NCBI RefSeq assembly: GCF_000018105.1
Contig: NC_009933.1
Location: 30,001 to 62,000, forward strand
Source of the DNA: Acaryochloris marina MBIC11017
GTDB lineage: Bacteria; Cyanobacteriota; Cyanobacteriia; Thermosynechococcales; Thermosynechococcaceae
Direction: 5' to 3'
Length of the DNA: 32,000 bases
Part shown: positions 13,753-32,000 of the stretch, piece after piece
Numbering within the stretch: the first letter of the stretch is position 1
Layout: every line of letters begins with the position of its first letter
Translations under genes and position numbers: made by a program
The notes under the pieces: model-generated
Database searches by the model: none
The model's input: only the letters and a program-made list of their open reading frames with translations
Told to the model about the DNA's origin: nothing

Positions 13753-13812
13753 AATCTATAAGGTTACCCAATTGAAAAGTTACTAACTGAATCTCCTTGT
13801 TTAACAACCCTG

Positions 13813-13868: not shown

Positions 13869-13903
13869 GCTGCTTTCACTTGGCGTGAAAGCTGCTGAAA
13901 CGT

Positions 13904-16266: not shown

Positions 16267-16309
16267 TGAAGTTGACTAAAGTAATGAGAACTGGGAGTGC
16301 TATTCCTCA

Positions 16310-17608: not shown

Positions 17609-19282
17609 ATGACAGCCTACCCACCTGTACGAGATTTTGCTGAACGTTTGAATCAAGCTAATGAGATTCGAGATCTTACTCGCGATGATGCCTCAAATGA
17701 TTTTTCAACTGAACAACCGCCGACGAATGATGATGAAGCTAGATTCAAGCAACTTGGATTGCCAGGTTTCGCCTCTTTTACTAAAGCTTTAGGTCATCAA
17801 GATAATGGATTGGTTCAAGAGCAGTCCTTTAACTCGTTACTAACAGCAATTCAGGAAGGTACCCAAATAGCATTCGAAGGTGTTCAGTTGGGAGGTGGCA
17901 TCCGAAAACTTGCGAATCCTCTGAATGCTTTTTCGTTCCAATTGATTGGAAATGATTCTCATGGAGCAAGAATGGCTGCAGCACCATCCTTCTCTAGCAG
18001 GAACTCAGCAGTTGATTTGGTAGAGCGATATTGGATGGCGCTCTGTCGTGATATCCCTTTTGATCAGTATTTTTTAAGTCCGTTGATTGCTGATGCTTGT
18101 GAAGATCTGAACAACCTCGGATTTGAACAGGAATTTGGATTTACCTGTACCCCTCAGACTATCTTCAGAGGCCCATATACTGGATGTGACATAGGTCCTC
18201 ACGTTTCCCAGTTTCTCCTCCAAGATTTTGATTTCGGAAATCAACCTATTCGGCAGCTTCAACGCTATCCGCAAGAGGGGCTTGATTACCTCACTGACTT
18301 TGATGGTTGGTTTCAGGTGAATAATGGCAATATTGATCCCACTGGAACTGATTTCTTAGTGGGTGAACGCCGCATCATCACCCTGAGAGATGCTGGTCAA
18401 TGGGTTCACATCGATTTCCCTTACCAATCAGCTCTTTGGTCTACTATTATTTTGCTTGGATTAGGTGCTGAAATATCCGAGGCGAGTCCCTACGCCAATG
18501 GGGATATTCGTTCTTCTGAACCTTTTGGTAGCTTGGGTGGTCCAGATGTGACTATTCAGCCTGCTTTAGCAGCGGTATATGCTCTAAAACATGCATGGTT
18601 CCAAAAGTGGTGTGTTCATCGTCGTCTCAGGCCAGAAGTTTATGCCCAACGCTTAGAGCTGTTCCGTAGAGGTCTATTAGAACCCACTGCCAGTGATCCG
18701 CTTAACAACGGTTTATTTAATCAACTATTTGGTGCTGGAGCAGATGTATGGAGACAGACTCAAGTATTAGAACGCATCTTGGAGCACAACAAGATGCAGA
18801 ATCAGGTTAATTTTAGAACTGATCCAGAGGGAACCTGGTTGCTACCTATTGCTTTTCCGGAGGGCTCTCCAACTCATCCAGCTTATCCAGGTGGGCATTC
18901 TGCATTTGTTGCTGCTGCGGCAACCACTGCAAAAGCTTTGTTTCAAGATGCTCCTTTCCCTAATCCAGTGATCCCAACGAGCAATGGTCAAGGATTAGTT
19001 CCTTACACTGGACCAGCTTTAACGATTCATGGTGAGCTGAATAAGCTAATTGCTAATATCACTCTTTTCCGTGATGGAGCTGGAATGCATTGGCGAACTG
19101 ACGGTACTGCATCAGGTATTAATACTCCACCAGATCGAATGGGTGTAGGAATTCCAACTGGTGGGAATCTATTGGGCGAAATGCTAGCAGTCAGTATGCT
19201 CAGGGATATCAAACGTACATATCGTGAAGAACTTGGTCTCTTTAAGTTTCAAGGACTTGATGGTGGCCCGATTGAGATTTAG
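17609..19282 (+). CDS. vanadium-dependent haloperoxidase-like enzyme (PAP2/acid-phosphatase superfamily)
   Basis: All three vanadate/phosphate-site motifs are present: K-x7-RP (KWCVHRRLRP), HPAYPGGHS (Ser-Gly-His) and R-x5-H..D (RDGAGMHWRTD). I prefer ATG 17609 (MTAYPP..., preceded by AGGGAAAATT) to ATG 17573. Confidence 0.85.
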   Translation: MTAYPPVRDFAERLNQANEIRDLTRDDASNDFSTEQPPTNDDEARFKQLGLPGFASFTKALGHQDNGLVQEQSFNSLLTAIQEGTQIAFEGVQLGGGIRKLANPLNAFSFQLIGNDSHGARMAAAPSFSSRNSAVDLVERYWMALCRDIPFDQYFLSPLIADACEDLNNLGFEQEFGFTCTPQTIFRGPYTGCDIGPHVSQFLLQDFDFGNQPIRQLQRYPQEGLDYLTDFDGWFQVNNGNIDPTGTDFLVGERRIITLRDAGQWVHIDFPYQSALWSTIILLGLGAEISEASPYANGDIRSSEPFGSLGGPDVTIQPALAAVYALKHAWFQKWCVHRRLRPEVYAQRLELFRRGLLEPTASDPLNNGLFNQLFGAGADVWRQTQVLERILEHNKMQNQVNFRTDPEGTWLLPIAFPEGSPTHPAYPGGHSAFVAAAATTAKALFQDAPFPNPVIPTSNGQGLVPYTGPALTIHGELNKLIANITLFRDGAGMHWRTDGTASGINTPPDRMGVGIPTGGNLLGEMLAVSMLRDIKRTYREELGLFKFQGLDGGPIEI

Positions 19283-19365
19283 TTCTATTGCTAGCCTTCC
19301 AAAAGTAATCAATAGAATCAAATAAATGCCAACTTGCTCCCCATAATCTCAAAACCGAGTTTCAA

Positions 19366-19394
19366 ACCCCTTCACCTGACTGAAGGGGTATTTT
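19366..19394. terminator. candidate bidirectional intrinsic terminator between convergent genes
   Basis: There is a perfect 8-bp stem CCCCTTCA (19366-19373) / TGAAGGGG (19380-19387) with a 6-nt loop. TATTTTA follows on the + strand and TTTGA on the - strand. It lies 84 nt after the haloperoxidase stop. Confidence 0.5.
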
Positions 19395-19531
19395 AGGAGT
19401 TATTTCTACTCCAAATAATACTCATTATCTGTATTACACGAAAACTTACACTAAAAAAAGACTGTTTCACTCTAGACTCTGGAATTCTTGCTACGACTGA
19501 CTTTTGGATTTCTGATGTTTGCTGGGGCTAG

Positions 19532-21547
19532 CTAGAGCAATGACTCTAAGTTATTCCGGATAACCAAAGTGGTAGGATGCTCAGGACCCAAGGCGACCTC
19601 TGCGATACTTAAAGCTTGCTGAAAGTCAGAAATAGCTTCTTCATAACGCCCTTGGTTGTCGTAGAGGAATGCCAAGTTATTGAGGCTACGAGCGACATCG
19701 GGGTGTTCGCTGCCCAAGAGCTTCTGACTCATTTCTAACGCTTGCACATAGAGCGGTTCGGCTTCTGTGTATCGTCCTTGCTCGTAGTAGAGGAATGCCA
19801 GGTTATTGAGGCTAGTGGCAACAGAGGGGTGTTCGCTACCCAAGAGCTTCTGTCTCATCTCCAACGCTTGCACATAAAGCGGTTCGGCTTCGCTGTACCG
19901 TCCTTGGTTTTTGTAGAGTACTGCCAAGTTATTGAGGCTCGTTGCGACTAAGGGGTGTTCGCTGCCCAAGAGCTTCTGACTCATCTCCAACGCCTGCACA
20001 TAAAGCGGTTCGGCTTCGCTGTACCGTCCTTGTTTTTTGTATAGTAATGCCAGGTTATTGAGGCTAAGAGCGACATCGGAGTGTTCGCTACCCAAGAGCT
20101 TCTGTCTCATCTCCAACGCTTGCACATAGAGGGGTTTGGCTTCTGTGTATCGTCCTTGGTTGTCGTAGAGTGCTGCCAGGTTATTGAGGCTACGAGCGAC
20201 ATCGGGGTGTTCGCTGCCCAAGAGCTTCTTTTGCATCTCCAACGCTTGCACATAGAGCGGTTCTGCTTCTGTGTAGCGCCCTTGCTCGTCGTAGAGGAAT
20301 GCCAGGTTATTGAGGCTACGAGCGACATCGGGGTGTTCGCTGCCCAATCTCTGTCGAGTTTGTTCTAAGCACTTTTGTCTCCAGGGCAGAGCTAATCCAT
20401 AGTTCCCCTGCCCTTCATAGAATCGACTGATGCCAACATAGGGCCATGTCAATTCACCGTCATTTAGTGAGTCAATCCGTTGATTGATCAGTTCCTCTAA
20501 GTGAGGAATTTTTGCAGTCATCTGGGCAATCACTTCAGTCGTTAGACTGTAATCAATCTCTTGAGCTGCAACTACCATTCCTCTGCAATAGGCTGCTTTA
20601 AGAGATTCCCCCTGATCAGGACGCTGATGTAATTGAATCCGAAAGTACTCCTGAACAATTTGATGGAGCTGGTAAGTACCCTGGTCTACTCGTTTGAGTA
20701 AGTTTCTAGCGATTAAACCTTTATCTCTGGTGTCTTCTAAGTCATCTGGATCCTGTTCAGATAGGCAGCTTTCAACCAAGGTCCAAGGAATAGGAGCAAC
20801 CGCAAACATCCCTAGAAAGCAGGCCAGTTCTTCTTCTGTCTCACTCAACTCTACCCAGCTTAATTCCAACGCAGCAGCGACTCCAAACTGTGCGGTCATT
20901 CCTGATTCTCTTTCTGTCAGTGCTTTAGCATCAAGCCGCTTGGATTCAAGTCGCTTAATCAATTTATGGAGGGACCAGTCGGGCTTATTGGCTAGATACC
21001 GCCCCACTAACTCTAGTCCCAAGGGCAAGTTCCCCACCCATCTGCATAAGGCTTGGGCATCGTCGAGCTGAGGATCAATGCGCTTGGCTCCAACTAAGGT
21101 TCTCAGTAGGAATAAGGCACTGGTATCATTCAGTTCGGTGATGGAGAGGGGATTTACGGATAGACCTAAATTCTGACGGGTAGTGATTAGAACTTTATAC
21201 CGTGGGTCTGATGGCGGTAAATACGGTTCGATGGTCTCAAGGTCCATCACGTCATCAAAAATGATCAGCACTTTTCCAGCCGGCCATTGCCCCCAGATAT
21301 AACTCACTTGTTGGTCTTCATCGAGTCCATCCGGTAGAGCCAGTGCCAACTTGGTCCGGGCAAATTCGATAATTTGGGCAGCTAGCTCCTGGCCTTTCAC
21401 TCGCAGCCAGCAGAGTCCACCCAAATAATGACCCAGATTGAGCTGGGAGATGGCATATTGCAGGGCAAGTTCTGTCTTTCCGATCCCACCCATGCCTGCT
21501 AAGGCGGTGAGGGCTACCGGGTTGTTCTTTTGGAGGAGCTGGTGCAA
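19532..21547 (-). CDS. NB-ARC (AP-ATPase/STAND) NTPase with C-terminal TPR array; N-terminally incomplete as an independent ORF
   Basis: Motifs seen are Walker A GMGGIGKT, Walker B LIIFDDV, LITTRQ, GNLPLGL, then at least 7 kinesin-light-chain-type TPRs. The only candidate initiator is TTG 21547, directly before the P-loop lead-in. The frame stays open upstream to 21757 with no ATG/GTG/TTG (see findings). Confidence 0.85.
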   Translation of the reverse strand: MHQLLQKNNPVALTALAGMGGIGKTELALQYAISQLNLGHYLGGLCWLRVKGQELAAQIIEFARTKLALALPDGLDEDQQVSYIWGQWPAGKVLIIFDDVMDLETIEPYLPPSDPRYKVLITTRQNLGLSVNPLSITELNDTSALFLLRTLVGAKRIDPQLDDAQALCRWVGNLPLGLELVGRYLANKPDWSLHKLIKRLESKRLDAKALTERESGMTAQFGVAAALELSWVELSETEEELACFLGMFAVAPIPWTLVESCLSEQDPDDLEDTRDKGLIARNLLKRVDQGTYQLHQIVQEYFRIQLHQRPDQGESLKAAYCRGMVVAAQEIDYSLTTEVIAQMTAKIPHLEELINQRIDSLNDGELTWPYVGISRFYEGQGNYGLALPWRQKCLEQTRQRLGSEHPDVARSLNNLAFLYDEQGRYTEAEPLYVQALEMQKKLLGSEHPDVARSLNNLAALYDNQGRYTEAKPLYVQALEMRQKLLGSEHSDVALSLNNLALLYKKQGRYSEAEPLYVQALEMSQKLLGSEHPLVATSLNNLAVLYKNQGRYSEAEPLYVQALEMRQKLLGSEHPSVATSLNNLAFLYYEQGRYTEAEPLYVQALEMSQKLLGSEHPDVARSLNNLAFLYDNQGRYEEAISDFQQALSIAEVALGPEHPTTLVIRNNLESLL
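19592..20347 (-). repeat. six tandem 126-bp (42-codon) TPR-encoding units, highly similar at nucleotide level
   Basis: The unit is LGSEHPDVARSLNNLAFLYDEQGRYTEAEPLYVQALEMQKKL. Differences among the five full near-identical units cluster at unit positions 6, 7, 10, 17, 20 and 21, with minor changes at 26, 29 and 39-40. Confidence 0.85.
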
Positions 21548-21696
21548 TTCCAGCAGCGTTTGGTCACGACCGACAAATTCAACGACACCGCTGCGAGGGA
21601 GGTTATGAGGAGGACTTGCCTGCCGGGATGATGGTGCTTCTTGTCCCTGATATGGATGACTCTCCGTTGGTGGACTGTGCCCTGACGAAGAGGTGT

Positions 21697-21706
21697 CTAC
21701 TTTTTT
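21697..21706 (-). other. candidate -1 frameshift / homopolymer slippage site A_AAA_AAG followed by TAG
   Basis: The - strand reads ACA AAA AAG TAG. The + strand has CTTTTTT at 21700-21706 and CTA at 21697-21699. The NB-ARC-TPR frame is exactly -1 relative to the CHAT-TIR frame here. Confidence 0.5.
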
Positions 21707-22794
21707 GTCAGGGTCTCTACCGCCCTCCGTATTCCATTGACAACATCCAAGAATGCTTCATCGCGATTGGTCCATTGCGTTACAGGTTTCGCATTTTTCG
21801 GCAATCCCTGAAGTTTACTGAAGGGGGAACCTAACCAATCACAAGGACGCAAAATAATAGGAATGACTTGGGCTGTACCTTCATCATGGCGGGCAATCGC
21901 TCTTTGCATCTCAATGTCGTAGCAATAGTCAGACGCGATAAAGTCCGGGCTGACCAGTAGCAAAATCATTTGAGCGGATTCTAGCTTGCTGTCGATTTGA
22001 GATTTCCATTCCTCCCCTGCTTCAATCGCCCGATCATGCCAAGCTGCAATTTTCCCCTGGCGTTTCAGATTGGCAAGATGGGTGACTAACTCTTCTCGCA
22101 AATCATCGTCTTTATGGGAATAGGAAATAAAGACCTTTAAGGGGTCATCGGCGTCTGGAATCATGGGAGAAGGTGCGGGTGTTGGAGGCGTTTGAGCCTT
22201 GGGTTGATCCTGATCCTTAGTTTCCTCTGTAGTGGGCTTTTTGATCAGAATGGGGGTGAGATGTTCTTCAATGCCTTCCAAGCGGATGGCAGCACAACCC
22301 AACTTGAAGGCAAACTCCACATCTCGTCCAGAACCGAGGGCATCATAGAATCCCACGGCAAAGGAGATCGCCGCTTTATCCTGGATCGCCCGTTTCATCC
22401 CGATCACATAGGGAATATGTTCTGAGATGGCCTTTGCCTGCACCTCGGTATAGCAACCATTGAGGACCACACAGCGCAGTTGATCGGCAAACAGACTAAA
22501 CAGGTCTGCAATTGCTTCACCACTGACCAACTGGGTGTTGCCACTGACATCCTCAAAGACCAAGCCCTCATCCCCTTCCCCATGCCCTGAGAAATGAACG
22601 ATCTGGGGATTTAGATCCAGCATGGCCCGCTGAATATCACGGGGGCGAACTGCCAGGCGCTGTTCAAGCTGGAACTCATCTCGATGTTGTGCCCGCTTCA
22701 AACCCTCATCAATATCCCTCAACTCCTGATCCAATCGAAGAGGCTGAGTATCTTTGGGATTCGCAGCGAGAAAGAGAATGGTTTGGGCAGTCAT
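21697..22794 (-). CDS. CHAT-like (caspase-fold) domain + TIR domain protein
   Basis: The N-terminal ~190 aa has the His/Cys dyad context IVHFSGHG ... VVLNGCYT and a CHAT-like tail (YVIGM..I.D.AAI.FA.GFY.AL). A Pro-rich linker follows. The TIR domain reads KVFISYSHKDD...LLLVSPDFIASDYCYDIEMQRA. I prefer ATG 22794 (MTAQTILFLAANP), which aligns with the N-terminus of the paralogue at 26810; the ORF-track start is 22887. Confidence 0.85.
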   Translation of the reverse strand: MTAQTILFLAANPKDTQPLRLDQELRDIDEGLKRAQHRDEFQLEQRLAVRPRDIQRAMLDLNPQIVHFSGHGEGDEGLVFEDVSGNTQLVSGEAIADLFSLFADQLRCVVLNGCYTEVQAKAISEHIPYVIGMKRAIQDKAAISFAVGFYDALGSGRDVEFAFKLGCAAIRLEGIEEHLTPILIKKPTTEETKDQDQPKAQTPPTPAPSPMIPDADDPLKVFISYSHKDDDLREELVTHLANLKRQGKIAAWHDRAIEAGEEWKSQIDSKLESAQMILLLVSPDFIASDYCYDIEMQRAIARHDEGTAQVIPIILRPCDWLGSPFSKLQGLPKNAKPVTQWTNRDEAFLDVVNGIRRAVETLTKK

Positions 22795-22928
22795 GATGGC
22801 AGGGCAGATACATTCGGGCAGGGATAGTGGAACGCTCAATGATTGAAATGCGACGTGGATAGCCTGCGGTTCTGGAGAACACCCCAAACTTTGAGGCAGG
22901 AATTGAAGGGAGATTAGAACGGTTTAAG

Positions 22929-25900
22929 TCATGAGATGACCTCCCCACCGCCTGAAAAGCTGGGTCCTTCTAGCCGCAGAAAGTAAAGCTGTCCCCCAGC
23001 ATCTCCAGCAATGATGGTGCGACCATCTAGGGCAATCTCACAACATTGAAATCCGCCTTCTCCGGTGAAACTCATCACTTCCATGCCCGTCGCCAGGTCC
23101 CACACCTTCAGGGTCTTGTCCCAAGACCCGGAGACCACGGTTTGGCCATCCGGGCTGATGCTCACGCCAGTGACAGAGTCAGTATGGCCTGTGAGGGTGT
23201 GCTGCTCCTCGCCCGTCGCCAGGTCCCACACCTTCAGGGTCTTGTCCCAAAACCCGGAGACCACGGTTTGGCCATCCGGGCTGATGCTCACACTCCTGAC
23301 AGAGACAGTATGTCCTGTGAGGGTGCGCTGCTCCTCGCCCGTCGCCAGGTCCCACACCTTCAGGGTCTTGTCACTAGACCCGGAGACCACGGTTTGGCCA
23401 TCCGGGCTGATGCTCACGCCATAGACAGAGTTAGTATGTCCTGTGAGGGTGCGCTGCTCCTCGCCCGTCGCCAGGTCCCACACCTTCAGGGTCTTGTCCC
23501 AAGACCCGGAGACCACGGTTTGGCCATCCGGGCTGATGCTCACGCCCTCGACAGGGGAAGTATGTCCTGTGAGGGTGCGCTGCTCCTCGCCCGTCGCCAG
23601 GTCCCACACCTTCAGGGTCTTGTCCAAAGACCCGGAGACCACGGTTTGGCCATCCGGGCTGATGCTCACGCCATAGACAGAGTTAGTATGTCCTGTGAGG
23701 GTGCGCTGCTCCTCGCCCGTCGCCAGGTCCCACACCTTCAGGGTCTTGTCACTAGACCCGGAGACCACGGTTTGGCCATCCGGGCTGATGCTCACGCCAT
23801 AGACAGAGTTAGTATGTCCTGTGAGGGTGCGCTGCTCCTCGCCCGTCGCCAGGTCCCACACCTTCAGGGTCTTGCCCCAAGACGCGGAGACCACGGTTTG
23901 GCCATCGGGGCTGATGCTCACGCCAGTGACAGTGGATGTATGTCCTGTGAGGGTGCGCTGCTCCTCGCCCGTCGCCAGGTCCCACACCTTCAGGGTATGG
24001 TCATAAGACGCGGAGACCACGGTTTGGCCATCCGGGCTGATGCTCACGCCAGTGACAGAGTCAGTATGGCCTGTGAGGGTGTGCTGCTCCTCGCCCGTCG
24101 CCAGGTCCCACACCTTCAGGGTATGGTCATAAGACGCGGAGACCACGGTTTGGCCATCCGGGCTGATGCTCACGCCCTCGACAGGGGAAGTATGTCCTGT
24201 GAGGGTGCGCTGCTCCTGGCCCGTCGCCAGGTCCCACACCTTCAGGGTATTGTCCAAAGACCCGGAGACCACGGTTTGGCCATCGGGGCTGATGCTCACG
24301 CCATAGACAGAGTTAGTATGTCCTGTGAGGGTGCGCTGCTCCTCGCCCGTCGCCAGGTCCCACACCTTCAGGGTCTTGTCCCAAGACCCGGAGACCACGG
24401 TTTGGCCATCCGGGCTGATGCTCACGCCCTCGACAGGGGAAGTATGTCCTGTGAGGGTGCGCTGCTCCTCGCCCGTCGCCAGGTCCCACACCTTCAGGGT
24501 ATTGTCCAAAGACCCGGAGACCACGGTTTGGCCATCCGGGCTGATGCTCACGCCCTCGACAGGGGAAGTATGTCCTGTGAGGGTGCGCTGCTCCTCGCCC
24601 GTCGCCAGGTCCCACACCTTCAGGGTATGGTCATAAGACGCGGAGACCACGGTTTGGCCATCGGGGCTGATGCTCACGCCCCTGACATTGGATGTATGTC
24701 CGCTGAGGGTGCGCACTAATGCTCCCCCCGCTTGGTTGAGGTGGGGGAATAGACACCGTATCCAGCACTCTTCCGGTCCCTGAGCTAAAGATTGAGTCAA
24801 AGCGGTCACATCCGGTGAGTCTTGACTCAACAAACGCCCATAGAGCTGACTGCGAAGCTGCTCAGGATGCTGATTTAAGACATGGCTAGATAACCGCAAC
24901 CCACTTTGGACGATGTTTAGGTCTTTGTCCTTGGGTAACGTTTCATAGTCCAATAGCAGCGCATTGATATCGGTGATTCTCAACTTGCGTTGCATCCAGC
25001 GATAATCCAAAAGTAATTGGCGTAACTCATCGGTGCGTTCTGCCTGCTTGAGGTGATGGGCCAAATGTTCATAGAAATATCCATCCTTCGGTCCCTTATG
25101 CCACCCTTCTAAACAGCTCTGCTGATAAGCCTCCAAAAGTTGCTGATGCAATGCCCCCTTGTTGGCCCGCTGGGCTTGTAAATAATCCTGCTGTAAGTCA
25201 TGGAGGCTGACTTGCCGCTGGGGATAGTCCCCCTCTAGCCGCAGCATGCCTTTCCTCGATAAGGTTGTTAGGATTTTGCCCGCATCTCGCTCCTTTAATG
25301 CTCCGGTATATTGCCATAGACGAACAATGACTGCTTCAGGAATCAATTCATCGGCTGGAAACACTGCCAGTTCTTGATACCGTTCTGCAGCGATGGGGTT
25401 GGTTTCTGCTAAGACCGTTGCACTGATATGCAGGGCTTTGAAAACATCGGGGTAGGGATAATGACTGAATTGTTCTTGGATAAATTCAAGATCTGAATCT
25501 TGTAAAGCACTGAGAACATGAGGCCAAGGGGTTAAATCCCGCACCATTGCACCGCATTGGGCTAGGGCTAAGGGCAAATTTCCACATTCTTTCGCTACCG
25601 CCTGGGCTTGGGAAGGCAAATCTGAGATGGGGACACCCACCCAGGCAGCTAATAACTCTAACGCCTGGTCATCGTTGAGTACCGACAGGGAAAAGTCAGT
25701 GGCCCCTAATCTTGTGATTAATCCTGAGTCACGGGTTGTTACCACCAAGGTACTTTGATGTCCCAGAACATTGAAGACTTCAGCATCAGCGATGCGCCAG
25801 ACATCATCTAGAATCAATAGACTTTGGCGTCCTTGCCATAGGATTTGAAGTCGATTTTTTCCTTCATTGATATCTTCAAATACCTGGCGTTCTCCACAGA

Positions 25901-26810
25901 GGGCTTCTGCTAGATCAGTTTGCTGGGCTAGCAGGTTTGGGTCTATCCCCACGGTCAGCCAGTAAATCCCATCCGGGAAGGCTGCTTGGGCTTGGGGGTC
26001 ATAGGCTAGGGCTGCGGCTAACACCGATTTGCCAATACCGCCCATGCCCTGGACACCAATGCGTTGCTGGTGCCCCGTCATTACTACGGGCTGGGCTAGA
26101 TTGTTGAGGACTTTCTCTCTCAGGGCTTTTAGGGTCTGAGGACGAGGTAAAAAGTAGGGGGGTAACTCTGGCACTCTCCAGAGTTTTTCAGGAGGGTGTT
26201 GTTCTGAAAAGGGTTGGATGGGTTCGGTATGAATACTGGATTTCTGGACTAAGACTGGGGTGTGGGATTCAGGGAAGCCCTCGATTTGAATGGCACTGAA
26301 TCCTAATTTAAAAGCAAATTCAATGTCTCGGCCTGCACCCAAAGCATCGTAGAAACCCACGGCAAAGGCCAGGGCCGCTTCATTGCTGATGGCTTGCTGC
26401 ATACCCACCACATAGTCAATATGTTGAGCAATGGCTTGAGCTTGCGCCTGGGTATAACACCCATTCAGAATTACGCAGTGGATATCTTCAGCAAACAGAG
26501 CAAACAGTCCGGCTAGGGCTGCACCTGTGACGAGTTGGGAGTTGCCTGCTTGATCTTCAAAGACGAGTCCTGCTTCTCTTTTGCCACTGCCAGCAAAGTG
26601 AATAATCTGAGGCGTTTCATCCAGTAAGGCCCGTTGAATATCTCTTACCCTTACAGCCAGGGAGGATTTGAGTTTGAATTGTTTTCGATGCTTTGACCGC
26701 TGTATCCCGTCTTCAATATCGCGTAATTCTTGGGCTGCTTGGCGCAATCCATCTGGGTTGCTGGCAAGGAATAGAATGGTTTGCTGTTCTGGTGGATTCT
26801 GACTCGTCAT
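22929..26810 (-). CDS. NLR-type STAND protein: CHAT-like domain - NB-ARC NTPase - helical domain - 14 WD40 repeats
   Basis: The N-terminal domain is paralogous to that of 21697..22794. NB-ARC motifs are GMGGIGKS, LLILDDVW, VVTTRD and GNLPLAL. There are 13 near-identical 42-aa WD40 units plus one divergent unit, enough for two 7-bladed propellers. Confidence 0.9.
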   Translation of the reverse strand: MTSQNPPEQQTILFLASNPDGLRQAAQELRDIEDGIQRSKHRKQFKLKSSLAVRVRDIQRALLDETPQIIHFAGSGKREAGLVFEDQAGNSQLVTGAALAGLFALFAEDIHCVILNGCYTQAQAQAIAQHIDYVVGMQQAISNEAALAFAVGFYDALGAGRDIEFAFKLGFSAIQIEGFPESHTPVLVQKSSIHTEPIQPFSEQHPPEKLWRVPELPPYFLPRPQTLKALREKVLNNLAQPVVMTGHQQRIGVQGMGGIGKSVLAAALAYDPQAQAAFPDGIYWLTVGIDPNLLAQQTDLAEALCGERQVFEDINEGKNRLQILWQGRQSLLILDDVWRIADAEVFNVLGHQSTLVVTTRDSGLITRLGATDFSLSVLNDDQALELLAAWVGVPISDLPSQAQAVAKECGNLPLALAQCGAMVRDLTPWPHVLSALQDSDLEFIQEQFSHYPYPDVFKALHISATVLAETNPIAAERYQELAVFPADELIPEAVIVRLWQYTGALKERDAGKILTTLSRKGMLRLEGDYPQRQVSLHDLQQDYLQAQRANKGALHQQLLEAYQQSCLEGWHKGPKDGYFYEHLAHHLKQAERTDELRQLLLDYRWMQRKLRITDINALLLDYETLPKDKDLNIVQSGLRLSSHVLNQHPEQLRSQLYGRLLSQDSPDVTALTQSLAQGPEECWIRCLFPHLNQAGGALVRTLSGHTSNVRGVSISPDGQTVVSASYDHTLKVWDLATGEEQRTLTGHTSPVEGVSISPDGQTVVSGSLDNTLKVWDLATGEEQRTLTGHTSPVEGVSISPDGQTVVSGSWDKTLKVWDLATGEEQRTLTGHTNSVYGVSISPDGQTVVSGSLDNTLKVWDLATGQEQRTLTGHTSPVEGVSISPDGQTVVSASYDHTLKVWDLATGEEQHTLTGHTDSVTGVSISPDGQTVVSASYDHTLKVWDLATGEEQRTLTGHTSTVTGVSISPDGQTVVSASWGKTLKVWDLATGEEQRTLTGHTNSVYGVSISPDGQTVVSGSSDKTLKVWDLATGEEQRTLTGHTNSVYGVSISPDGQTVVSGSLDKTLKVWDLATGEEQRTLTGHTSPVEGVSISPDGQTVVSGSWDKTLKVWDLATGEEQRTLTGHTNSVYGVSISPDGQTVVSGSSDKTLKVWDLATGEEQRTLTGHTVSVRSVSISPDGQTVVSGFWDKTLKVWDLATGEEQHTLTGHTDSVTGVSISPDGQTVVSGSWDKTLKVWDLATGMEVMSFTGEGGFQCCEIALDGRTIIAGDAGGQLYFLRLEGPSFSGGGEVIS
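23070..24707 (-). repeat. 13 tandem 126-bp WD40-encoding units, near-identical at nucleotide level
   Basis: The unit is LTGHT[SNDV][PSTN]V[EYTR][GS]VSISPDGQTVVS[GA][SF][LWYS][DG][NKH]TLKVWDLATG[EQ]EQ[RH]T. The rest of each unit is almost invariant. Confidence 0.9.
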
Positions 26811-27124
26811 TCAGCGTTAATCTAAGGGATATTTTGGTGTCTTTTTTCCATTGGGTTGAGCGTTTAAAACTGACAGCCTGCGATAGATTGCTAATGACGA
26901 TGGAGACGTTATTTTGAAATTTAATTTAATCGCATCTAAAATTATCGGCACTTTTGATATGCTTTACGCAATTATTAAGGATATTTCTGTAATCTAGGAC
27001 GTTGGTGGGGATGGAAATAATTGCCTTTTTAAGGGCTTTTTAATGGCTCACAGATTTGATTGAGTCCTATCAGCCCCTCGATTTTGATGATCTATCACGA
27101 GTTTTGATCTAAAAAGAACGAACC

Positions 27125-27652
27125 ATGCCACTGCCCCCGAACCCAATCTGTCTTCAATGCATCGACTATTCCCGAGGGGAAGCAAAGCGGATTCATGGGC
27201 CGCAAGGGGATGGTTGCTGGACGGATAATCGGTGCGATCGCAAACGACATCACTACCGCTACCGCAAGGAAAGCAATGCTAAGCGCCGAGGAGAATACGC
27301 TAGTCAGAAAGCAATAACAACCTCAACAGAAACGACTGAAACCTTCTCGATTCCCGTCCAAACCCCAGCCGTGGCGTTGCTCTATCTCTACAAAGATAAG
27401 CCCAAGGATGCCCATCTCCATGCTCTGGCTGTCAGTGTCTGGCAGGGGAGTGAGAAGTTAGCGGAAATTGAGGCCGTCCACTGCATGGGCATGACCAATA
27501 CTCAGGTGAATCGGTATTTGAAAGAGGTGCTGAGGGTACTAAAAGTAAGGTACGGCATCACAGAGTTTGAGCCGCCGATTCGCATGGAGCCTTCTGAGTG
27601 CGAAATTGCTGACTGTCCCCTGAAGGATAAGCGCCATGTTCAAACAGCTTGA
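27125..27652 (+). CDS. hypothetical protein with N-terminal Cys-rich (zinc-ribbon-like) segment
   Basis: 175-aa ATG ORF. It has CLQC-x19-C-x6-C followed by a basic stretch. Its 3' end overlaps the next ORF by 17 nt. Confidence 0.6.
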   Translation: MPLPPNPICLQCIDYSRGEAKRIHGPQGDGCWTDNRCDRKRHHYRYRKESNAKRRGEYASQKAITTSTETTETFSIPVQTPAVALLYLYKDKPKDAHLHALAVSVWQGSEKLAEIEAVHCMGMTNTQVNRYLKEVLRVLKVRYGITEFEPPIRMEPSECEIADCPLKDKRHVQTA

Positions 27653-28280
27653 GCTAGATTTTGCTAGTGCTTTGGCTTCTGCTTTAAATGAACCGGAGCA
27701 GGCTGATATTTCTCTGATGTGTGCATCGTTGGATCAACATTTACAGGGTCGTTCTCCTCATGAACAGCTTCGAGTAGCTGGGGATGCGATCAAGGATATG
27801 GCTGAGGTTTGTCTTCAACGGGCAGAGCTAATGATCCAGGGTTGGGAAGAACGATACAACTCTGAAGGTCCAGTGCTGGATGAGGATTTTTTAGCTGGGA
27901 TGGTGCAGCAGACCATGTTTTTGGATATCTCTGATCTTTGTCGTCAGCCGAAATCACGGAAAAGTCGCCAGGGGTTCACGGGGGAGCCTGTTGAGTCAGT
28001 TGTGGGTGATGTTAGCAAGGAATCAGTGCTGGAGTTTGTGGATGAACTGGAGAGTGGGAAGGAAGTGGCACTGAAGGTCAGTCACGTCGATGATGTTGGA
28101 GCATGGGTGAATGCGATCGCACAGTATTTGGAGAGGGCTTCGGAGGCGTTGTCGTTTGCGGAATTGGTGAAGGGGCTGGGGATGCCTACTGTTGTTGTGC
28201 TGATCGGGGTGCTTTTAGGGGGCTTTCAGATCGAGCAAACCAGAGATTTTTATGGGAGTAGCATTTGGATTAAAATTTGA
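27636..28280 (+). CDS. acidic hypothetical protein
   Basis: 214-aa ATG ORF that overlaps the previous stop, suggesting translational coupling and an operon. No confident domain. Confidence 0.6.
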   Translation: MFKQLELDFASALASALNEPEQADISLMCASLDQHLQGRSPHEQLRVAGDAIKDMAEVCLQRAELMIQGWEERYNSEGPVLDEDFLAGMVQQTMFLDISDLCRQPKSRKSRQGFTGEPVESVVGDVSKESVLEFVDELESGKEVALKVSHVDDVGAWVNAIAQYLERASEALSFAELVKGLGMPTVVVLIGVLLGGFQIEQTRDFYGSSIWIKI

Positions 28281-28349
28281 AATTTTTGAAAATGCAAGTG
28301 GGTCAAGACAAAGCAAGTTGGGACTGGTCGTATGGATGCATTCAAATAT

Positions 28350-31300
28350 TTAGGCTGCTGCTGGAGGGCGCAGGGCAATTAATTCTGATGCTCTTTTCTT
28401 ACCCAAGATGCTGGAAAGTTGGAGTTCTGAACAAGTCCAAACATCCTGACTTGACTTAACACCATTGTTTAAGAGGGCAAGATATTCACCACGGTACAGA
28501 CGCAAAGGAACCGACAGAAGCCCAAGAGCCTCTGTTGGGAGACCTACCTCAAGCTGCTGCTGCATTCTGTCTACCTCCTCATCAGAAGGATTATTCCCAA
28601 TATGTATCAGAGCAGCTAGCTGATGTGCTGAGCGTAAATAAAGCCGAGTTGCATCGGCAAATTTTTGGATATCACCATACCCAATTTTTCCTTGATATGG
28701 ATTAGGGGTATATAGCCGTTCTATCTCCTCGATGGCTACTCCATGCACCCAGTCCCAAAGCAATGAAGCACGTTTACACCTTGCAAAATAGTCAAGCTCT
28801 CCTTGTGCTAGGTGTTGCAGAAGTCTAACAACTTCAGTTCCATAGCGCTCTGAAGCTTGTTGAGGGCGGATAGATTCACTTCTGCCTTTCTTCATCATTG
28901 GAGTATAGCCACCATCTGACTCTGGAAGCTGCTGCAGAAGAGCGACCAATGTAATTACAGATAAATCATCAGTTTGAATACTACGCACTAAGCGGATTAG
29001 GCGCATGGCTGAGTCAAACGACAGAGCAGACTCACCAACGGCCCGACCGAGAAGAGTCAACTGAATATAAACATCCTCTTCTTCGATCAAGTCCTGTTCC
29101 ATCATTAACTCAATCAGTTCCTCCAGATGTTGTTTCATACGATCTCGCCAACTGGGATCTGAACGATTGGCAAGATACCCTCCATAGGTATTGGAAAGAA
29201 CAGCCACAATCTCAGCTCTTTGAACTCTCTCCATCTGTGCTAGCAATCTGACAAGCCACGTCTTTAGACTTTGTGAATCTAACGAAGATCGGATAGGCTC
29301 CAACTGCCCTTGAACGTATTGCCGGAACAAGCTCTGCCTTTCGTAGCTGTTGTCAGCCAGTAGAATGGCTTGCCCTCGTGAATTACTTGTATGTCCCGGT
29401 CTACCAGCACGCCCTGCCATATTCTTGTATTCAGCCACAGTGAATTGTCGTCCATCTTGGCCAACGAATTCATGTTCAGCCAATATTACAGTTGAGGCAG
29501 GGGTATTAATCCCTGCTGCAACAGTTGTTGTGGCCGATAGTACTCTGACCTGTCCATCTAGACTTCTGAAAGCTTGCTCAACGACTTCTTTCTCTTCCCG
29601 TGTCAAGTTGCGATTATGAAATGCAGTGCCCCCATGTAGGCATTCCCGGAGAGCTTGAGACGTTGTAGGAAGGTCATATTGGGGTAGGACTGAGATCGCT
29701 TCGGTTGCAGGAGACAACCCTAACTCTTTCGCCAGATAATTGGCACATCCTTGTGCTGGCCCTTTCTGATTACGAAAAACAATAACGTTCTCTCCCTGCT
29801 GCACTAACTTCTGGACCAATGGCACGATGACATCTTGACTACTCGCTTTTTTTCTTCTGACCTGTATTTCACTGGGAGAGAGAAGCTGAGTGACCTGCTC
29901 ATTTCCATCGGTATCAACAAACTGGAATATACCTGACCGATCTAGGGCACCCTCAACCAGCGGTACTGGCCGCTCTTGAGAAATTAATTTGTCACAGTCT
30001 AGCCATTCATCAAAATGGTTAACATCACCCACTACTGCAGAAAGAGTGATGAGCTGTATCTGAAAACCTCGCTGCTTGGCAGATAGAAGATATGTGAGCA
30101 GAAGTTCCACGCTTATTCCACGAGTTGGATCCGTTATAAACTGAGCCTCATCAAGGACGACTAGACCAAGCTGATTAAGCACCCCAGTATTGCTCACAAC
30201 CAAGTTCAGAAACATTTCGTAAGTCAGTAAGGCTAAATCGTATTTGCCTCGAACAAAGAGATCGGTTTGATCTACATAATCACCACAGCAGCGGATAACC
30301 CGCATTCCGAGGCCATCACCATACACTTGAGAGAACTGCTCATATTTTTCATTTGTGAGCGCTCGGTATGGAAGTAAAAATACAGCCTTACGGCCTTCGC
30401 ATATTGCCTGGATTGCAGCCAGCTCACCCACAAATGTTTTCCCCGAACCAGTGGGTGCGATCGCTAATAGTGATGAACCATCAAGAATTCGATAATCATT
30501 GATCGCTTGAAGCTGGAGGTCATTCAGGGTGGGAAACTGCTTGGCCCACTGGTTCAAGATTGTTAGGGGAAGGCCAAACCCGGCTAATTCTTGAATATCA
30601 GCATCTACTCTTAACCCCCCTTTTTGAGGGAACTTAGTATAGAAATGCGGCCCCGGTTTAATGGGTGGAAGAACCAGCCCTCCAGTAACATGGCCAAAGA
30701 GGACCGGAGTTTGCGCGATTCTCATCTTAATCGCAACGCTTCTGGCCTTCTCAACGACCTGGGCACTCATTTCTACTAAATCAATGGTCGGGGATGTTGT
30801 TTCTATGAACGTATCAATCAATGCCTTGGTGAGTAACCCATGCCCTTCACCAGGAACCTCATAAGCCTCTTCACTCTCCCTAGATGCCGCAAGTAATATT
30901 CTTCCCTCTCCAGCCAAGGTAGAAACGGACATGCTGATGCTCCTTGATACTGGGATATCTCCTAAAACTTTTGCTGGTGCCCCTCCACTAAAACAACAGT
31001 CAAGGATAAACAGCACTGCTTTAGCTTGAGTTTCCCGAAAATAGTGTGCTAGCTCCTCCATCGGGATTGTGGTGTCTGCTGGATCAGTGCGGCTCGTGTC
31101 ATGAGCCACGATTTGATGATTGGAAGTACCATGCCCCGAGAAAGAAAGGATCACGGTATCGTCTGAAGTTGCCGCTCCCAAAGTGGACTGCAGCAGTTGA
31201 CGAATTCCATGTAAAGAAGCGTCCTTATCGGTGATGAGTTTTGCTTGAATGTCAGGGATGGAGTCACTGAACAAGGCCCACAGTGCCTCAGCATCTCGTC

Positions 31301-31373
31301 TAGCACCTGTCAATTCAGGAATTGTGATGTCTGCGAAGCGATCTACACCGATAAATCCAGCCAGAAGAGCCAT
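28350..31373 (-). CDS. caspase (peptidase C14-like) domain fused to a Ski2/Hel308-like superfamily-2 helicase
   Basis: The N-terminal ~230 aa has ILSFSGHG (His) and FILDCCFSGG (Cys), the caspase dyad. Helicase motifs follow: I APTGSGKT, Ia LPYRALT, II VVLDEAQ, III LSAV, V ATTTVAAGINTP and VI YKNMAGRAGRPG. The C-terminus looks like a winged-helix/ratchet region (..IQLTLLGRAVGESALSFDSA..). Confidence 0.9.
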   Translation of the reverse strand: MALLAGFIGVDRFADITIPELTGARRDAEALWALFSDSIPDIQAKLITDKDASLHGIRQLLQSTLGAATSDDTVILSFSGHGTSNHQIVAHDTSRTDPADTTIPMEELAHYFRETQAKAVLFILDCCFSGGAPAKVLGDIPVSRSISMSVSTLAGEGRILLAASRESEEAYEVPGEGHGLLTKALIDTFIETTSPTIDLVEMSAQVVEKARSVAIKMRIAQTPVLFGHVTGGLVLPPIKPGPHFYTKFPQKGGLRVDADIQELAGFGLPLTILNQWAKQFPTLNDLQLQAINDYRILDGSSLLAIAPTGSGKTFVGELAAIQAICEGRKAVFLLPYRALTNEKYEQFSQVYGDGLGMRVIRCCGDYVDQTDLFVRGKYDLALLTYEMFLNLVVSNTGVLNQLGLVVLDEAQFITDPTRGISVELLLTYLLSAKQRGFQIQLITLSAVVGDVNHFDEWLDCDKLISQERPVPLVEGALDRSGIFQFVDTDGNEQVTQLLSPSEIQVRRKKASSQDVIVPLVQKLVQQGENVIVFRNQKGPAQGCANYLAKELGLSPATEAISVLPQYDLPTTSQALRECLHGGTAFHNRNLTREEKEVVEQAFRSLDGQVRVLSATTTVAAGINTPASTVILAEHEFVGQDGRQFTVAEYKNMAGRAGRPGHTSNSRGQAILLADNSYERQSLFRQYVQGQLEPIRSSLDSQSLKTWLVRLLAQMERVQRAEIVAVLSNTYGGYLANRSDPSWRDRMKQHLEELIELMMEQDLIEEEDVYIQLTLLGRAVGESALSFDSAMRLIRLVRSIQTDDLSVITLVALLQQLPESDGGYTPMMKKGRSESIRPQQASERYGTEVVRLLQHLAQGELDYFARCKRASLLWDWVHGVAIEEIERLYTPNPYQGKIGYGDIQKFADATRLYLRSAHQLAALIHIGNNPSDEEVDRMQQQLEVGLPTEALGLLSVPLRLYRGEYLALLNNGVKSSQDVWTCSELQLSSILGKKRASELIALRPPAAA

Positions 31374-31804
31374 TTTGATGAACCAAGCAATGCGAACCTA
31401 TATATAGTAGTCAAAAATAATTTATTCTGCCTTCAAACACTATATATGGACTAAATAATTCTTGCTATCATCAAATCTGTCTCCTGTGACTAACTCCGGC
31501 ATAGCTCGCCGGAAACTCAGATTGATGGGAAATGGCAATCAGTATTTTTTTGCTTTTGATTCGAGCTGACACAGGCAAAGCCGGAATAACAGTCTGACTA
31601 TGGGTACCATATACCTGAAGTAACCCACTATTCTTTAATGCCCAGCCTTACCAAAGTCGCTGAACTCACTGAGATCGCAACCTCAACCCTTGGTGAGTTC
31701 GCAACTGTGAAGTCATGATTATGCAGCAAAATCAATGATGGAAACGTAACAGATATGCCTGCTTATGCTGCAACTCCGAGGGCAGTCATCACCGTGGGTT
31801 GCCA

Positions 31805-32000
31805 TTATTGTGAAGATACATATTTCATCCAAGCCTGAAGCAGTTCATCTTCAGATATACCTCTGAGTTGATCTGTGTGTTCCAGCATTGCAGCAATAGC
31901 AACCCGAATTAGTGTATTTTCTGTAATCCTCTCCCCAGAGTTTTTTCTGGCCCTATTGAGCTGCCTTGCAAGCATTGTCAATTGATCTAAGTGCTCTTGA
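31805..32000 (-). CDS. 3' end of an ORF running off the window (hypothetical)
   Basis: The - strand is open from the window edge to TAA (31805-31807) and encodes ...QEHLDQLTMLARQLNRARKNSGERITENTLIRVAIAAMLEHTDQLRGISEDELLQAWMKYVSSQ*. It is not in the ORF track because its start lies outside the window. No family assigned. Confidence 0.35.
   Translation of the reverse strand, partial: QEHLDQLTMLARQLNRARKNSGERITENTLIRVAIAAMLEHTDQLRGISEDELLQAWMKYVSSQ

Follow-up and report, generated by a model that had tools for sequence, protein, structure and literature searches.

Features of the locus

The window analysed here (32,000 nt of Acaryochloris marina MBIC11017, contig NC_009933.1, positions 30,001 to 62,000) contains an intact ORF of 1007 aa, with an ATG start and a TAA stop (28350-28352), in which a caspase-like protease is joined by a linker to a Hel308-like helicase. 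The ORF lies at exactly 28350-31373, as given in the original prediction, which left out the strand (minus), and every caspase and SF2 helicase motif quoted there was found in the translation and assigned residue positions. A promoter/terminator scan was uninformative (3 promoter-like sites found versus 7 expected).

13904-14917, minus strand: tyrosine integrase
19532-21547, minus strand: NB-ARC-TPR protein
21697-22887, minus strand: CHAT-TIR protein
22929-26810, minus strand: CHAT-NB-ARC-APAF1_C-WD40x13 protein
28350-31373, minus strand: caspase-Hel308-like helicase fusion, whole gene (1007 aa; ORF list and translation)
30519-30683, minus strand: linker between protease and helicase, residues 231-285

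The NLR-type neighbours and mobile-element hallmarks described originally are present, in the form of the NB-ARC genes, the tyrosine integrase and a GC content that ranges from 0.32 to 0.62 along the window; no tRNA marking an island boundary was found in it. The CHAT-TIR gene, ~5.5 kb from the fusion gene, encodes a ThsB-like TIR domain (1.2e-61). A ParA partition module is located directly upstream of the fusion gene, and the 430-bp upstream spacer contains no ORF of ≥70 aa. The ORFs adjoining the fusion gene have no Pfam or PADLOC match, and the downstream one is convergent.

The AF2 model of the full-length protein (pLDDT 87.4, pTM 0.85) is confident over the whole chain, which implies a fixed arrangement of protease and helicase, at least as modelled. 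Linker residues 231-285 are predicted to pack as helices (pLDDT 81-92), and P236, G241 and N284 are largely kept in the deep family.

The caspase-like protease domain

30684-31373, minus strand: caspase-like protease (Peptidase_C14, clan CD), residues 1-230 (Pfam PF00656, 1.9e-13)
31131-31133, minus strand: catalytic His81, in SFSGHG (residues 77-82, 31128-31145)
30993-30995, minus strand: catalytic Cys127, in LDCCFSGG (residues 124-131, 30981-31004)
31293-31295, 30999-31001 and 30858-30860, minus strand: D27, D125 and E172, candidate acidic S1 pocket residues (conservation)
30939-30980, minus strand: predicted disordered loop after the catalytic Cys, residues 132-145 (low model confidence)

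Residues 5-226 match positions 4-224 of the 233-position PF00656 profile (51 bits, cut-off 21.4) and both H81 and C127 are present, in agreement with the N-terminal caspase domain and His/Cys dyad of the original prediction; profile and model together place the domain in Peptidase family C14, with a predicted caspase-hemoglobinase fold. For the protease-domain model (pLDDT 88) the MALT1 paracaspase is the best PDB fold (E 2e-12), followed by caspases-7/3/6/8/9 and bacterial GSU0716, and MALT1/caspase matches span E 2e-12 to 1e-9. A phmmer search of the domain against the PDB matched no solved caspase by sequence. In the AF2 models H81 closes strand 73-79/82 and C127 closes strand 119-125/127.

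Both catalytic residues are invariant in 54 close homologues (54-78% identity) and kept in 60/60 caspase-retaining fusion representatives, down to ~26% identity, so that the loss of the dyad that would have refuted the defence role originally proposed was not seen; the sole deep representative with a degenerate N-terminus is P0171. Besides C127 (60/60), the deep fusion representatives retain D27 (60/60), D125 (59/60) and E172 (58/60). A D-x-C motif is common to metacaspases and paracaspases and is the basis for proposing an S1 pocket here: the near-invariance of D27, D125 and E172 suggests an acidic pocket and a basic P1 residue, and by analogy the protease probably cuts after Arg or Lys.

Loop 132-145, the only long low-confidence stretch in the full-length and domain models, sits where caspases have the inter-subunit linker. 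It includes K135 and R144 and is 24-50 residues long in different family members; of 60 representatives, 38 have K/R at position 135 and 27 at position 144. That the loop is processed there is a speculative idea. The highest-scoring protease profile is NCBIfam caspase_w_EACC1 (NF047832; 91.8 bits, cut-off 140), making the EACC1-associated caspases the nearest named subfamily by profile score, to which the fusion protein does not belong.

The helicase half

29979-30518, minus strand: RecA1 ATPase, residues 286-465 (Pfam DEAD, 5e-24), with Q-motif Q287
30435-30458, minus strand: Walker A (motif I) APTGSGKT, residues 306-313
30348-30371, minus strand: motif Ia PYRALTNE, residues 335-342
30141-30158, minus strand: motif II VLDEAQ, residues 406-411
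30033-30041, minus strand: motif III SAV, residues 445-447
29289-29978, minus strand: RecA2, residues 466-695 (Pfam Helicase_C, 7e-8)
29496-29531, minus strand: motif V TTTVAAGINTPA, residues 615-626
29400-29420, minus strand: motif VI MAGRAGR, residues 652-658
28353-29288, minus strand: Hel308-type C-terminal domains, residues 696-1007 (winged helix, ratchet or domain 4, HhH-like domain 5)

All six SF2 motifs claimed at the outset (I, Ia, II, III, V and VI) were located, and the Q-motif is also intact. All 64 deep representatives have G311, K312, D408, E409, R655, G657 and R658, and K312, D408/E409 and GRAGR are invariant in the 54 homologues at 54-78% identity; the DEAQ form of motif II is shared by the window protein and 45/64 deep representatives. 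NCBIfam Hel308-type models cover residues 281-999 (for PRK02362, residues 287-999 against model positions 28-700 of 739), and residues 263-998 align with residues 11-705 of PDB Hel308 2va8 (264 bits). Foldseek comparison of the model with archaeal Hel308/Hjm gave target-normalised TM scores of 0.80-0.85 over ~750 columns, which bears out the winged-helix/ratchet C-terminus of the original prediction and adds an HhH domain; Pfam Helicase_dom4_arc is weak in the window protein (0.0023) and recorded for many homologues. From profile coverage and predicted fold, the helicase half is a complete five-domain Hel308/PolQ-type SF2 ring.

Against solved structures this half scores 264 bits for Hel308, 171 for PolQ and 71 for HamB (8vx9), the last on RecA1 only. 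This ranking, with a TM score of up to 0.85, favours an alternative that seems distinctly unlikely overall, namely that the protein is a repair or replicon-maintenance enzyme whose motor, working on stalled forks or conjugative intermediates, would bring the protease to proteins stuck on DNA (DNA-protein crosslinks, trapped topoisomerases, relaxases, terminal proteins), as in helicase-assisted crosslink proteolysis. The apparently rigid protease-helicase arrangement would also suit a protease carried along DNA. However, scores for the Hel308 equivalogs NF040935 (251 bits, cut-off 1200) and NF002654 (308 bits, cut-off 887) are far below threshold, and the fusion protein is thus not a Hel308 orthologue.

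Family, distribution and co-evolution

An exhaustive search gave a fusion family of ~60 clusters at 50% identity, aligned end to end, that includes full-length homologues of the window protein at 54-78% identity. An alignment-based metagenome scan returned at least 586 confirmed relatives, from which 80 loci were kept; it supersedes a single-protein genome scan that yielded 3 loci only, because its peptide patterns were too specific. Members occur in at least eight bacterial phyla, with between-phyla identities of 50-60%. Pairwise identities of the protease and helicase halves are correlated (Mantel r 0.74, 0/999 permutations as high); the fusion is a single stable lineage in which the two halves co-evolve, and strong constraint acts on the two active sites, which are essentially invariant to ~26% identity.

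The distribution is patchy and mobile. Full-length copies were found on 16 plasmids, and the plasmid carriers, which come from several phyla, include conjugative and mobilisable ones. Related Acaryochloris plasmids have the neighbouring NLR genes, at 87%, but not the fusion gene. Such presence or absence between related plasmids counts against the repair reading, as a housekeeping repair factor should have stable synteny and vertical inheritance. The plasmid copies, the partition module directly upstream of the window gene and the integrases, IS elements and recombinases beside several fusion loci would all fit a mobile-element weapon or addiction factor, destroying proteins of a competitor plasmid, a phage or the host defence on meeting their DNA. 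Many copies lie, however, on chromosomal-looking contigs of 0.35-1.8 Mb and the fusion is absent from phage genomes, so this explanation is held to be improbable, although its mechanism overlaps that of a defence module and the two are hard to tell apart by sequence.

Phage carriage was considered and rejected: tblastn against phage genomes gave helicase-only matches, in archaeal viruses only, and a viral-contig scan gave a single helicase-only match (28%). The nearest caspase-less relatives are ~900-aa Hel308-like helicases with HhH and unassigned C-terminal extensions, one with a GHKL ATPase; evidence for modular effector swapping is weak. No E. coli member was found by blastn in 5,426 genomes, a DNA-level search that misses proteins of 30-50% identity, and neither the fusion nor a close protease domain was found in Enterobacteriaceae plasmids.

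Neighbours of the homologues

No conserved partner gene was identified. All-against-all BLAST of the ±6 genes around 76 distinct loci gave no neighbour family in more than five, at most 3 of 131 immediate neighbours share a Pfam family, and inspection of the -1/+1 genes was negative. These results led us to set aside, as the main interpretation, a multi-gene system in which the fusion is the sensor-protease half and a separate latent effector (a pore-former or pro-nuclease, of EACC1, Pepco or MBL type) is variable or not always adjacent. That arrangement, which we regard as quite unlikely, would agree with the EACC1-associated caspase being the top protease profile, although below its cut-off, and with a close co-directional gene in about half of the loci (upstream in 30/63, downstream in 29/69), some of which encode small proteins of unassigned function (DUF3892, DUF2188, DUF2158). 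It would also agree with the characterised protease-effector modules, all of which have their substrate encoded by the neighbouring gene (PMC12642450; PMC12799240). Yet no recurrent family corresponding to the adjacent latent effectors of the MBL, EACC1, Pepco or alpha/beta-hydrolase modules was seen (BLAST, 76 loci; Pfam, 131 neighbours), the window gene has only a convergent downstream neighbour and an upstream spacer free of ORFs of the length sought, and the recurring neighbours PDC-S54 and QatA are separate systems, each restricted to subclades of the fusion family.

As proposed for the window, homologues are found on plasmids and beside known defence systems, the latter in about 9 of 12 annotated contexts, a count of individual examples. 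These contexts include type I R-M with Abi_C at one locus and with nSTAND1 at another, Mrr with an Rpn-like PDDEXK_2 protein, PIN with HEPN, HicA with DUF499/DUF1156/SNF2, nSTAND_NTPase5, ABC-3C, and VapBC with a UvrD-type helicase and multiubiquitin/ThiF/DUF6527. QatA (1071 bits), a Ppl-like protein and PDC-S54 directly adjoin homologues. Type IV Thoeris pairs a caspase effector with a TIR gene that makes its signal; the window has the ThsB-like TIR noted above, and no TIR genes recur near homologues (76 loci; 131 immediate neighbours).

The repair reading draws further support from the closest homologue (P0001, 78%), which has topoisomerase and HU genes on either side, a context unlike that of the window, and from the ParA module of the window and the 16 plasmid copies. 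Against it, no repair genes recur beside the fusion in the 76 loci, where R-M, Qat, Ppl-like, ABC-3C, STAND and toxin-antitoxin genes are found instead.

Interpretation and proposed mechanism

None of the computational outcomes that the original prediction named as refuting it was seen. The interpretation that we favour, and hold to be somewhat probable, is that this one gene works by itself as a conflict or anti-phage module, with a helicase that senses DNA and so gates a MALT1-like protease. The sensor would be the C-terminal 720 residues, a putative Hel308/PolQ-type 3'-to-5' DNA helicase ring. It would load on forks, single-stranded 3' tails and similar intermediates of replication and recombination, which phage or plasmid replication or DNA damage could produce. 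DNA binding and ATP hydrolysis may alter how the helicase holds the N-terminal caspase-like domain; alternatively, several molecules on one DNA might bring their protease domains into contact. MALT1 itself is activated by scaffold-driven proximity. Either route would give an active MALT1/metacaspase-like protease, probably cutting after Arg or Lys, and since no dedicated substrate gene is linked, it most likely cleaves host or invader proteins directly. Infection would then fail because the cell stops growing or dies, or because a phage protein is inactivated.

In a more specific version, to which we attach only limited credence, the protease would be DNA-guided, with the motor on invader or damaged DNA either assembling caspase domains or carrying the protease to DNA-bound proteins. 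Substrates in the latter case would be the proteins on that DNA (SSB, recombinases, terminal proteins, relaxases), while the DNA-scaffold form would amount to a one-protein bacterial short-cut of the eukaryotic pathway from nucleic-acid-sensing helicase to caspase. Counting against a defence role in general are the helicase, which resembles Hel308 and PolQ, both of them repair enzymes, more than it does HamB, and the non-defence contexts (topoisomerase/HU at P0001, ParA in the window and the mostly hypothetical neighbours of L098).

If the single-gene defence reading is true, the family would represent a widespread one-gene immunity joining a nucleic-acid-sensing SF2 helicase with a caspase/paracaspase, both of which have a central place in the innate immunity of eukaryotes. 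A protease would join the effectors driven directly by helicase sensors, sharpening the question raised by effector-less bacterial caspases of which cut stops the phage. The DNA-guided version, if true, would be the first immune effector with protease substrates chosen by the DNA they occupy, and a protease that is gated by DNA and ATP and specific for Arg/Lys could serve as a tool. The family is large and conserved with clear catalytic residues, and homologues occur in culturable Agrobacterium, Bradyrhizobium, Ralstonia, Hymenobacter, Streptomyces and Ferroacidibacillus.

Comparison with known systems

Searches with PADLOC, Pfam and NCBIfam assigned the fusion to neither a characterised system nor a housekeeping family, and the novelty originally claimed stands to the extent that none of these profiles ties the protein to a named defence system. 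It does not extend to the architecture as such or to the concept. Metacaspase censuses (PMC3501461; PMC8283722), the only searchable literature in which the fusion was found, had already tallied Caspase+DEAD/Helicase_C architectures but did not study their function, and the protease-coupled Hachiman described in 2025 (PMC12799240; 10.1101/2025.09.03.673762) provides a precedent for helicase-gated proteolysis, lowering conceptual novelty.

PADLOC gave partial helicase matches only, the best to PDC-M23B (113 bits against a 1060-position model; two partial stretches, the better at residues 496-699) and HamB (≤106 bits; mostly partial stretches, 1e-31 or weaker). No full-length match to component B of PDC-M23 was obtained and no conserved component A-type partner was seen in 76 loci, so the fusion is not placed in that system. 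Likewise for Hachiman, the helicase is not of HamB type and no HamA (DUF1837) neighbour was found in the 76 loci or the window. With the helicase nearer to Hel308/PolQ than to HamB, the Hachiman parallel drawn originally holds as an analogy of logic but not as a relationship. Canonical HamAB has the same logic of helicase sensor and effector held in check as that proposed here (PMC12278908), but its effector is a separate nuclease, HamA, and the fusion matches HamB in the generic SF2 core only.

In protease-coupled Hachiman, DNA sensing and ATP hydrolysis by HamB free a fused trypsin-like protease, giving abortive-infection-type defence (10.1101/2025.09.03.673762; PMC12799240). This system (HamMAB, also called trypsin-HamAB-MBL) resembles the fusion in combining a Ski2-like SF2 helicase with a covalently attached protease, with sensing also proposed here. 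However, its trypsin-like protease is carried by HamA, with HamB as a separate gene, whereas here a caspase-fold protease is on the helicase itself, and it has a dedicated MBL pro-nuclease substrate encoded upstream, whereas no conserved substrate or partner gene accompanies the fusion.

Among bacterial immune caspases, the available parts of the sources report that the catalytic Cys is required for anti-phage defence, including in type IV Thoeris and CanA of Canu (PMC12642450; PMC12799240), and that the E. coli 27-18K caspase-like protease, with its catalytic Cys at position 131 (127 in the fusion), protects against phage without a linked effector (PMC12642450). Where described, activation there is by a TIR-made signal or partner proteins, and none is described as helicase-fused in those parts. 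The fusion resembles MALT1, metacaspases and cyanobacterial orthocaspases in its predicted caspase-hemoglobinase fold, His/Cys dyad, D-x-C motif and conserved acidic residues, but is without death, Ig or p10-type accessory domains and is tethered to a helicase. With archaeal Hel308/Hjm and PolQ/HelQ it has in common RecA1, RecA2, winged helix, ratchet and HhH domains and all SF2 motifs; identity is only ~22-25%, the fusion family occurs patchily in bacteria and on plasmids, and characterised Hel308s do not have the N-terminal protease. Cas3, Hhe, Nhi/Hna and type II Mokosh each combine, in one gene, an SF1/SF2 motor as sensor with a destructive enzymatic domain; these carry nuclease effectors, whereas the fusion carries a protease.

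Domain architecture of the fusion protein

The gene at 28350-31373 is a single intact ORF (ORF list and translation; minus strand, start ATG, stop TAA) encoding 1007 aa. Pfam matches to both halves (Peptidase_C14, 1.9e-13, over nearly the whole profile; DEAD, 5e-24; Helicase_C, 7e-8) bear out the original prediction of a caspase and a helicase in one polypeptide, and every motif quoted there was located in the protein:

residues 77-82, minus strand: SFSGHG, caspase His motif
residues 124-131, minus strand: LDCCFSGG, caspase Cys motif
residues 306-313, minus strand: APTGSGKT, helicase motif I
residues 335-342, minus strand: PYRALTNE, helicase motif Ia
residues 406-411, minus strand: VLDEAQ, helicase motif II
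residues 445-447, minus strand: SAV, helicase motif III
residues 615-626, minus strand: TTTVAAGINTPA, helicase motif V
residues 652-658, minus strand: MAGRAGR, helicase motif VI

Broadly defined, peptidase family C14 includes the protein, whose helicase half belongs by architecture to the Hel308/PolQ-type branch of Ski2-like helicases. Profile searches, which bear on the claimed novelty, gave no narrower named assignment. Hel308-type NCBIfam models cover residues 281-999, with equivalog scores far under their cut-offs for a Hel308 orthologue (308 vs 887; 251 vs 1200), and the top protease subfamily, ‘caspase, EACC1-associated type’ (91.8 bits), does not reach its cut-off of 140. PADLOC PDC-M23 was matched only partially, a Hachiman system was rejected (no HamB-level match, HamA absent), as was a protease-effector module (no linked effector).

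A full-length AlphaFold2 model, with an alignment of 54 homologues as input, was confident (pLDDT 87.4, pTM 0.85), and the protease and helicase halves are therefore predicted to lie in a fixed arrangement. Its sole long disordered stretch, residues 132-145, is right behind the catalytic Cys, at the position matching the inter-subunit linker of caspases. Residues ~260-1000 superpose on archaeal Hel308/Hjm (Foldseek; TM 0.80-0.85, about 750 columns), followed by the PolQ helicase domain and Brr2; profile search of PDB sequences matched Hel308 2va8 end to end (264 bits), the PolQ helicase domain (171 bits) and HamB of Hachiman (71 bits, confined to RecA1). Residues 1-262, modelled separately (pLDDT 88), have MALT1 paracaspase as nearest fold (E 2e-12), then caspases-7/3/6/8/9 and bacterial GSU0716, while sequence search of the PDB with the protease domain alone detected no solved caspase.

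Conservation and distribution of the family

Among the matches listed by a word-indexed search are 120 proteins of about 1000-1045 aa (54-78% identity), labelled in their sources just ‘DEAD/DEAH box helicase’; the precomputed Pfam architecture is the same in nearly all of them. An exhaustive search across 1.84 billion protein representatives identified 1106 proteins at E<=1e-30; 61 clusters (50% identity) are of fusion length and aligned from residue ~1-7 to ~1000, with identity down to ~26-30%. A metagenome scan confirmed at least 586 relatives. The caspase-helicase fusion is thus a recurring family and no one-off, with named hosts in Cyanobacteria, Acidobacteriota, Gemmatimonadota, Planctomycetota, Bacteroidota, Nitrospirota, Bacillota, Actinomycetota and Alpha-, Beta- and Gammaproteobacteria. 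Culturable bacteria with a homologue include Agrobacterium pusense (WP_022557080), Bradyrhizobium (BAR63598, on pNK6d), Ralstonia, Hymenobacter and Ferroacidibacillus.

H81, C127, G311-K312-T313, D408-E409-Q411 and G654-R658 are invariant in 54 close members, so that the catalytic dyad is intact in all 54. In a deep set of family representatives (down to ~26% identity), the His/Cys dyad is retained in 60/60 with a caspase domain, and the Walker A Lys, motif II DE pair and motif VI arginines in 64/64. The single exception in this set, P0171 (1020 aa, a relative from the exhaustive search), has a degenerate N-terminus: the helicase is kept, and the 245 N-terminal residues, without the dyad, form a pseudo-caspase or stem from domain replacement. 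D27, D125 and E172 are near-invariant in the deep set and, with the D-x-C motif, may form a candidate acidic S1 pocket like that with which metacaspases and paracaspases bind Arg/Lys.

Pairwise identities of the protease and helicase halves are correlated (Mantel r 0.74; 0/999 permutations as high), which points to a single ancient fusion whose halves have co-evolved ever since. The closest caspase-less relatives are Hel308-like helicases of about 900 aa (~30% identity); P0258 (1068 aa), a caspase-less relative from the exhaustive search, carries a C-terminal GHKL (HATPase_c) domain.

Genomic context in A. marina

The NLR-type neighbours and mobile-element hallmarks of the original prediction were identified as CHAT-NB-ARC-WD40, CHAT-TIR and NB-ARC-TPR genes and a tyrosine integrase. 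Features of the window are:

437-1471: PAPS-reductase-like protein
3822-4232: DUF4326
8780-9568, minus strand: PD-(D/E)XK/Cas4-like nuclease
13904-14917, minus strand: tyrosine integrase
19532-21547, minus strand: NB-ARC-TPR, the ORF starting right at the P-loop
21697-22887, minus strand: CHAT-TIR, TIR ThsB-like (PADLOC 1.2e-61)
22929-26810, minus strand: CHAT-NB-ARC-APAF1_C-WD40x13, a 1293-aa Apaf-1-like STAND protein with N-terminal CHAT (caspase-like) protease
27125-27652 and 27636-28280, plus strand: an overlapping pair of ORFs in the same orientation (175 and 214 aa), just downstream of and convergent with the caspase-helicase gene

The last two ORFs have no match in Pfam or PADLOC and are not conserved beside homologues of the caspase-helicase gene. 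The WD40 region of the STAND gene reaches a GC content of 0.59-0.62 and produces a spurious long antisense ORF (23046-24719, plus strand). The CHAT-TIR and NB-ARC-TPR ORFs are separated by 150 bp, with linker-like sequence upstream in another frame, and 19532-22887 is either one frameshift-split CHAT-TIR-NB-ARC-TPR gene or a two-gene NLR system; in related Acaryochloris plasmids (87% identity) the two parts are annotated separately. A 569-aa ORF (17573-19282, plus strand; no Pfam/PADLOC match) adjoins the part of the window where GC is lowest (0.32-0.35, 16-18 kb). Small genes in one orientation make up a block at positions 1-9568, across which GC drops from 0.50 to 0.35; it looks like phage or mobile-element cargo.

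All DNA matches to 12000-32000 lie on Acaryochloris plasmids. A plasmid of A. marina MBIC10699 shares the GGDEF response regulator/integrase region at 95% identity, and the NLR-type genes match others at ~87%; these differing matches indicate that the window belongs to a mosaic accessory replicon. The plasmids sharing the NLR-type genes at ~87% contain nothing matching the caspase-helicase gene, which is therefore a variable accessory gene. On short contigs, the gene for an identical protein comes right after a VirC1/CbiA-type ParA gene and a gene for a 135-aa protein, a partition module that suggests a plasmid origin of the window. The C-terminal part of the 135-aa protein lies at the window edge (31805-32000, minus strand; compare 3737-4779 of L100, one of those contigs), and a second ParA-like gene (462 aa) is found further upstream on contigs with the identical caspase-helicase.

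Neighbourhoods of homologues

Clustering of the homologues at 95% identity gave 76 distinct loci, in which ORFs were called and +/-6 genes compared. No neighbour family recurs in more than 5/76 loci within this range, nor any Pfam family in more than 3/131 immediate neighbours; the caspase-helicase gene therefore travels alone. This census argues against the rival reading that the gene supplies only one part of a two-part protease-effector system whose substrate varies. Neighbours differ widely from locus to locus and can often be recognised as defence genes or mobile elements, for example:

one locus: type I R-M and Abi_C
one locus: type I R-M, nSTAND1 and IS element
one locus: Mrr, Rpn-like PDDEXK_2, serine recombinase and IS110
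one locus: PIN toxin-antitoxin pair and HEPN
one locus: HicA and DUF499/DUF1156/SNF2 cluster
one locus: trypsin-like protease and nSTAND_NTPase5
Hymenobacter plasmid: ABC-three-component system, integrase and IS5
Agrobacterium plasmid: VapBC, UvrD-type helicase and multiubiquitin/ThiF/DUF6527

QatA (1071 bits), a Ppl-like protein and candidate PDC-S54 are each directly adjacent in different subclades. PDC-S54, a PADLOC single-gene candidate (up to 3.3e-158), adjoins the fusion gene in one subclade at loci L009 (11104-11730), L022 (7604-8221), L020 (3653-4948) and L028 (12930-13682; assigned by sequence similarity alone); L009 and L022 have the N-terminal half alone of the 410-position model. 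In another subclade, full-length QatA or a Ppl-like protein is encoded immediately downstream (L066, 13037-14971, with the 1071-bit QatA; L068, 7363-9306, QatA by sequence similarity; L047, 13038-16133), and a conserved protein of 298 aa that PADLOC does not match immediately upstream, in L047, L052, L066 and L068.

Not all contexts are defence-like: a 78% homologue is flanked by topoisomerase and HU genes, and locus L098 consists mostly of hypothetical genes. A few such contexts, with the likeness to Hel308/PolQ, favour a repair or replicon-maintenance enzyme that would carry a protease to DNA-bound proteins, a reading opposed by the patchy distribution, the absence of synteny and the defence neighbours. 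Full-length copies are present on sixteen plasmids, and none was found in the phage genomes and viral contigs searched. A weapon benefiting the plasmid, not the host, is a further rival explanation.

Proposed function and comparison with known systems

A stand-alone defence module is the best-supported reading, and the defence role originally proposed is upheld as a candidate. The analysis establishes the architecture, intact and conserved catalytic centres, co-evolution of the halves, lack of a conserved partner and a context of defence genes and plasmids. For trigger, activation mode, specificity, substrates and outcome we infer that the Hel308-type ring would sense single-stranded 3′ tails, forks or damaged DNA, and that its DNA-/ATP-driven conformational cycle, or alternatively the gathering of several copies of the protein on one DNA molecule, would activate the caspase-like domain, which may then cleave proteins of the host or the invader on the C-terminal side of basic residues. 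A caspase-like protease without a linked effector protects E. coli, and requires its catalytic Cys (PMC12642450).

In the searchable literature, the only mentions of caspase plus helicase architectures are tallies in metacaspase censuses (helicase function in 12/671 prokaryotic metacaspases, PMC3501461; DEAD+Helicase_C in three cyanobacterial orthocaspases, PMC8283722), and conflict-system surveys defining EACC1-type caspases do not mention the fusion. No functional description of a caspase-helicase, a Hel308-protease anti-phage system or a Hachiman-caspase was found there. Studies of protease-Hachiman and immune caspases published in 2025 take away some of the conceptual novelty of the original proposal.

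Destructive effectors driven by a helicase sensor, and helicase-gated proteolysis in particular, are already known. Canonical HamAB has been described (PMC12278908), and in the protease-coupled form of Hachiman, DNA sensing and ATP hydrolysis by HamB release a trypsin-like domain that cuts an MBL pro-nuclease (10.1101/2025.09.03.673762; PMC12799240). The gating proposed here would be shared with that system, whereas the new features are a caspase fold in place of a trypsin-like one, direct fusion of the protease to a Hel308-type motor, and the lack of a dedicated substrate such as the MBL pro-nuclease of Hachiman.
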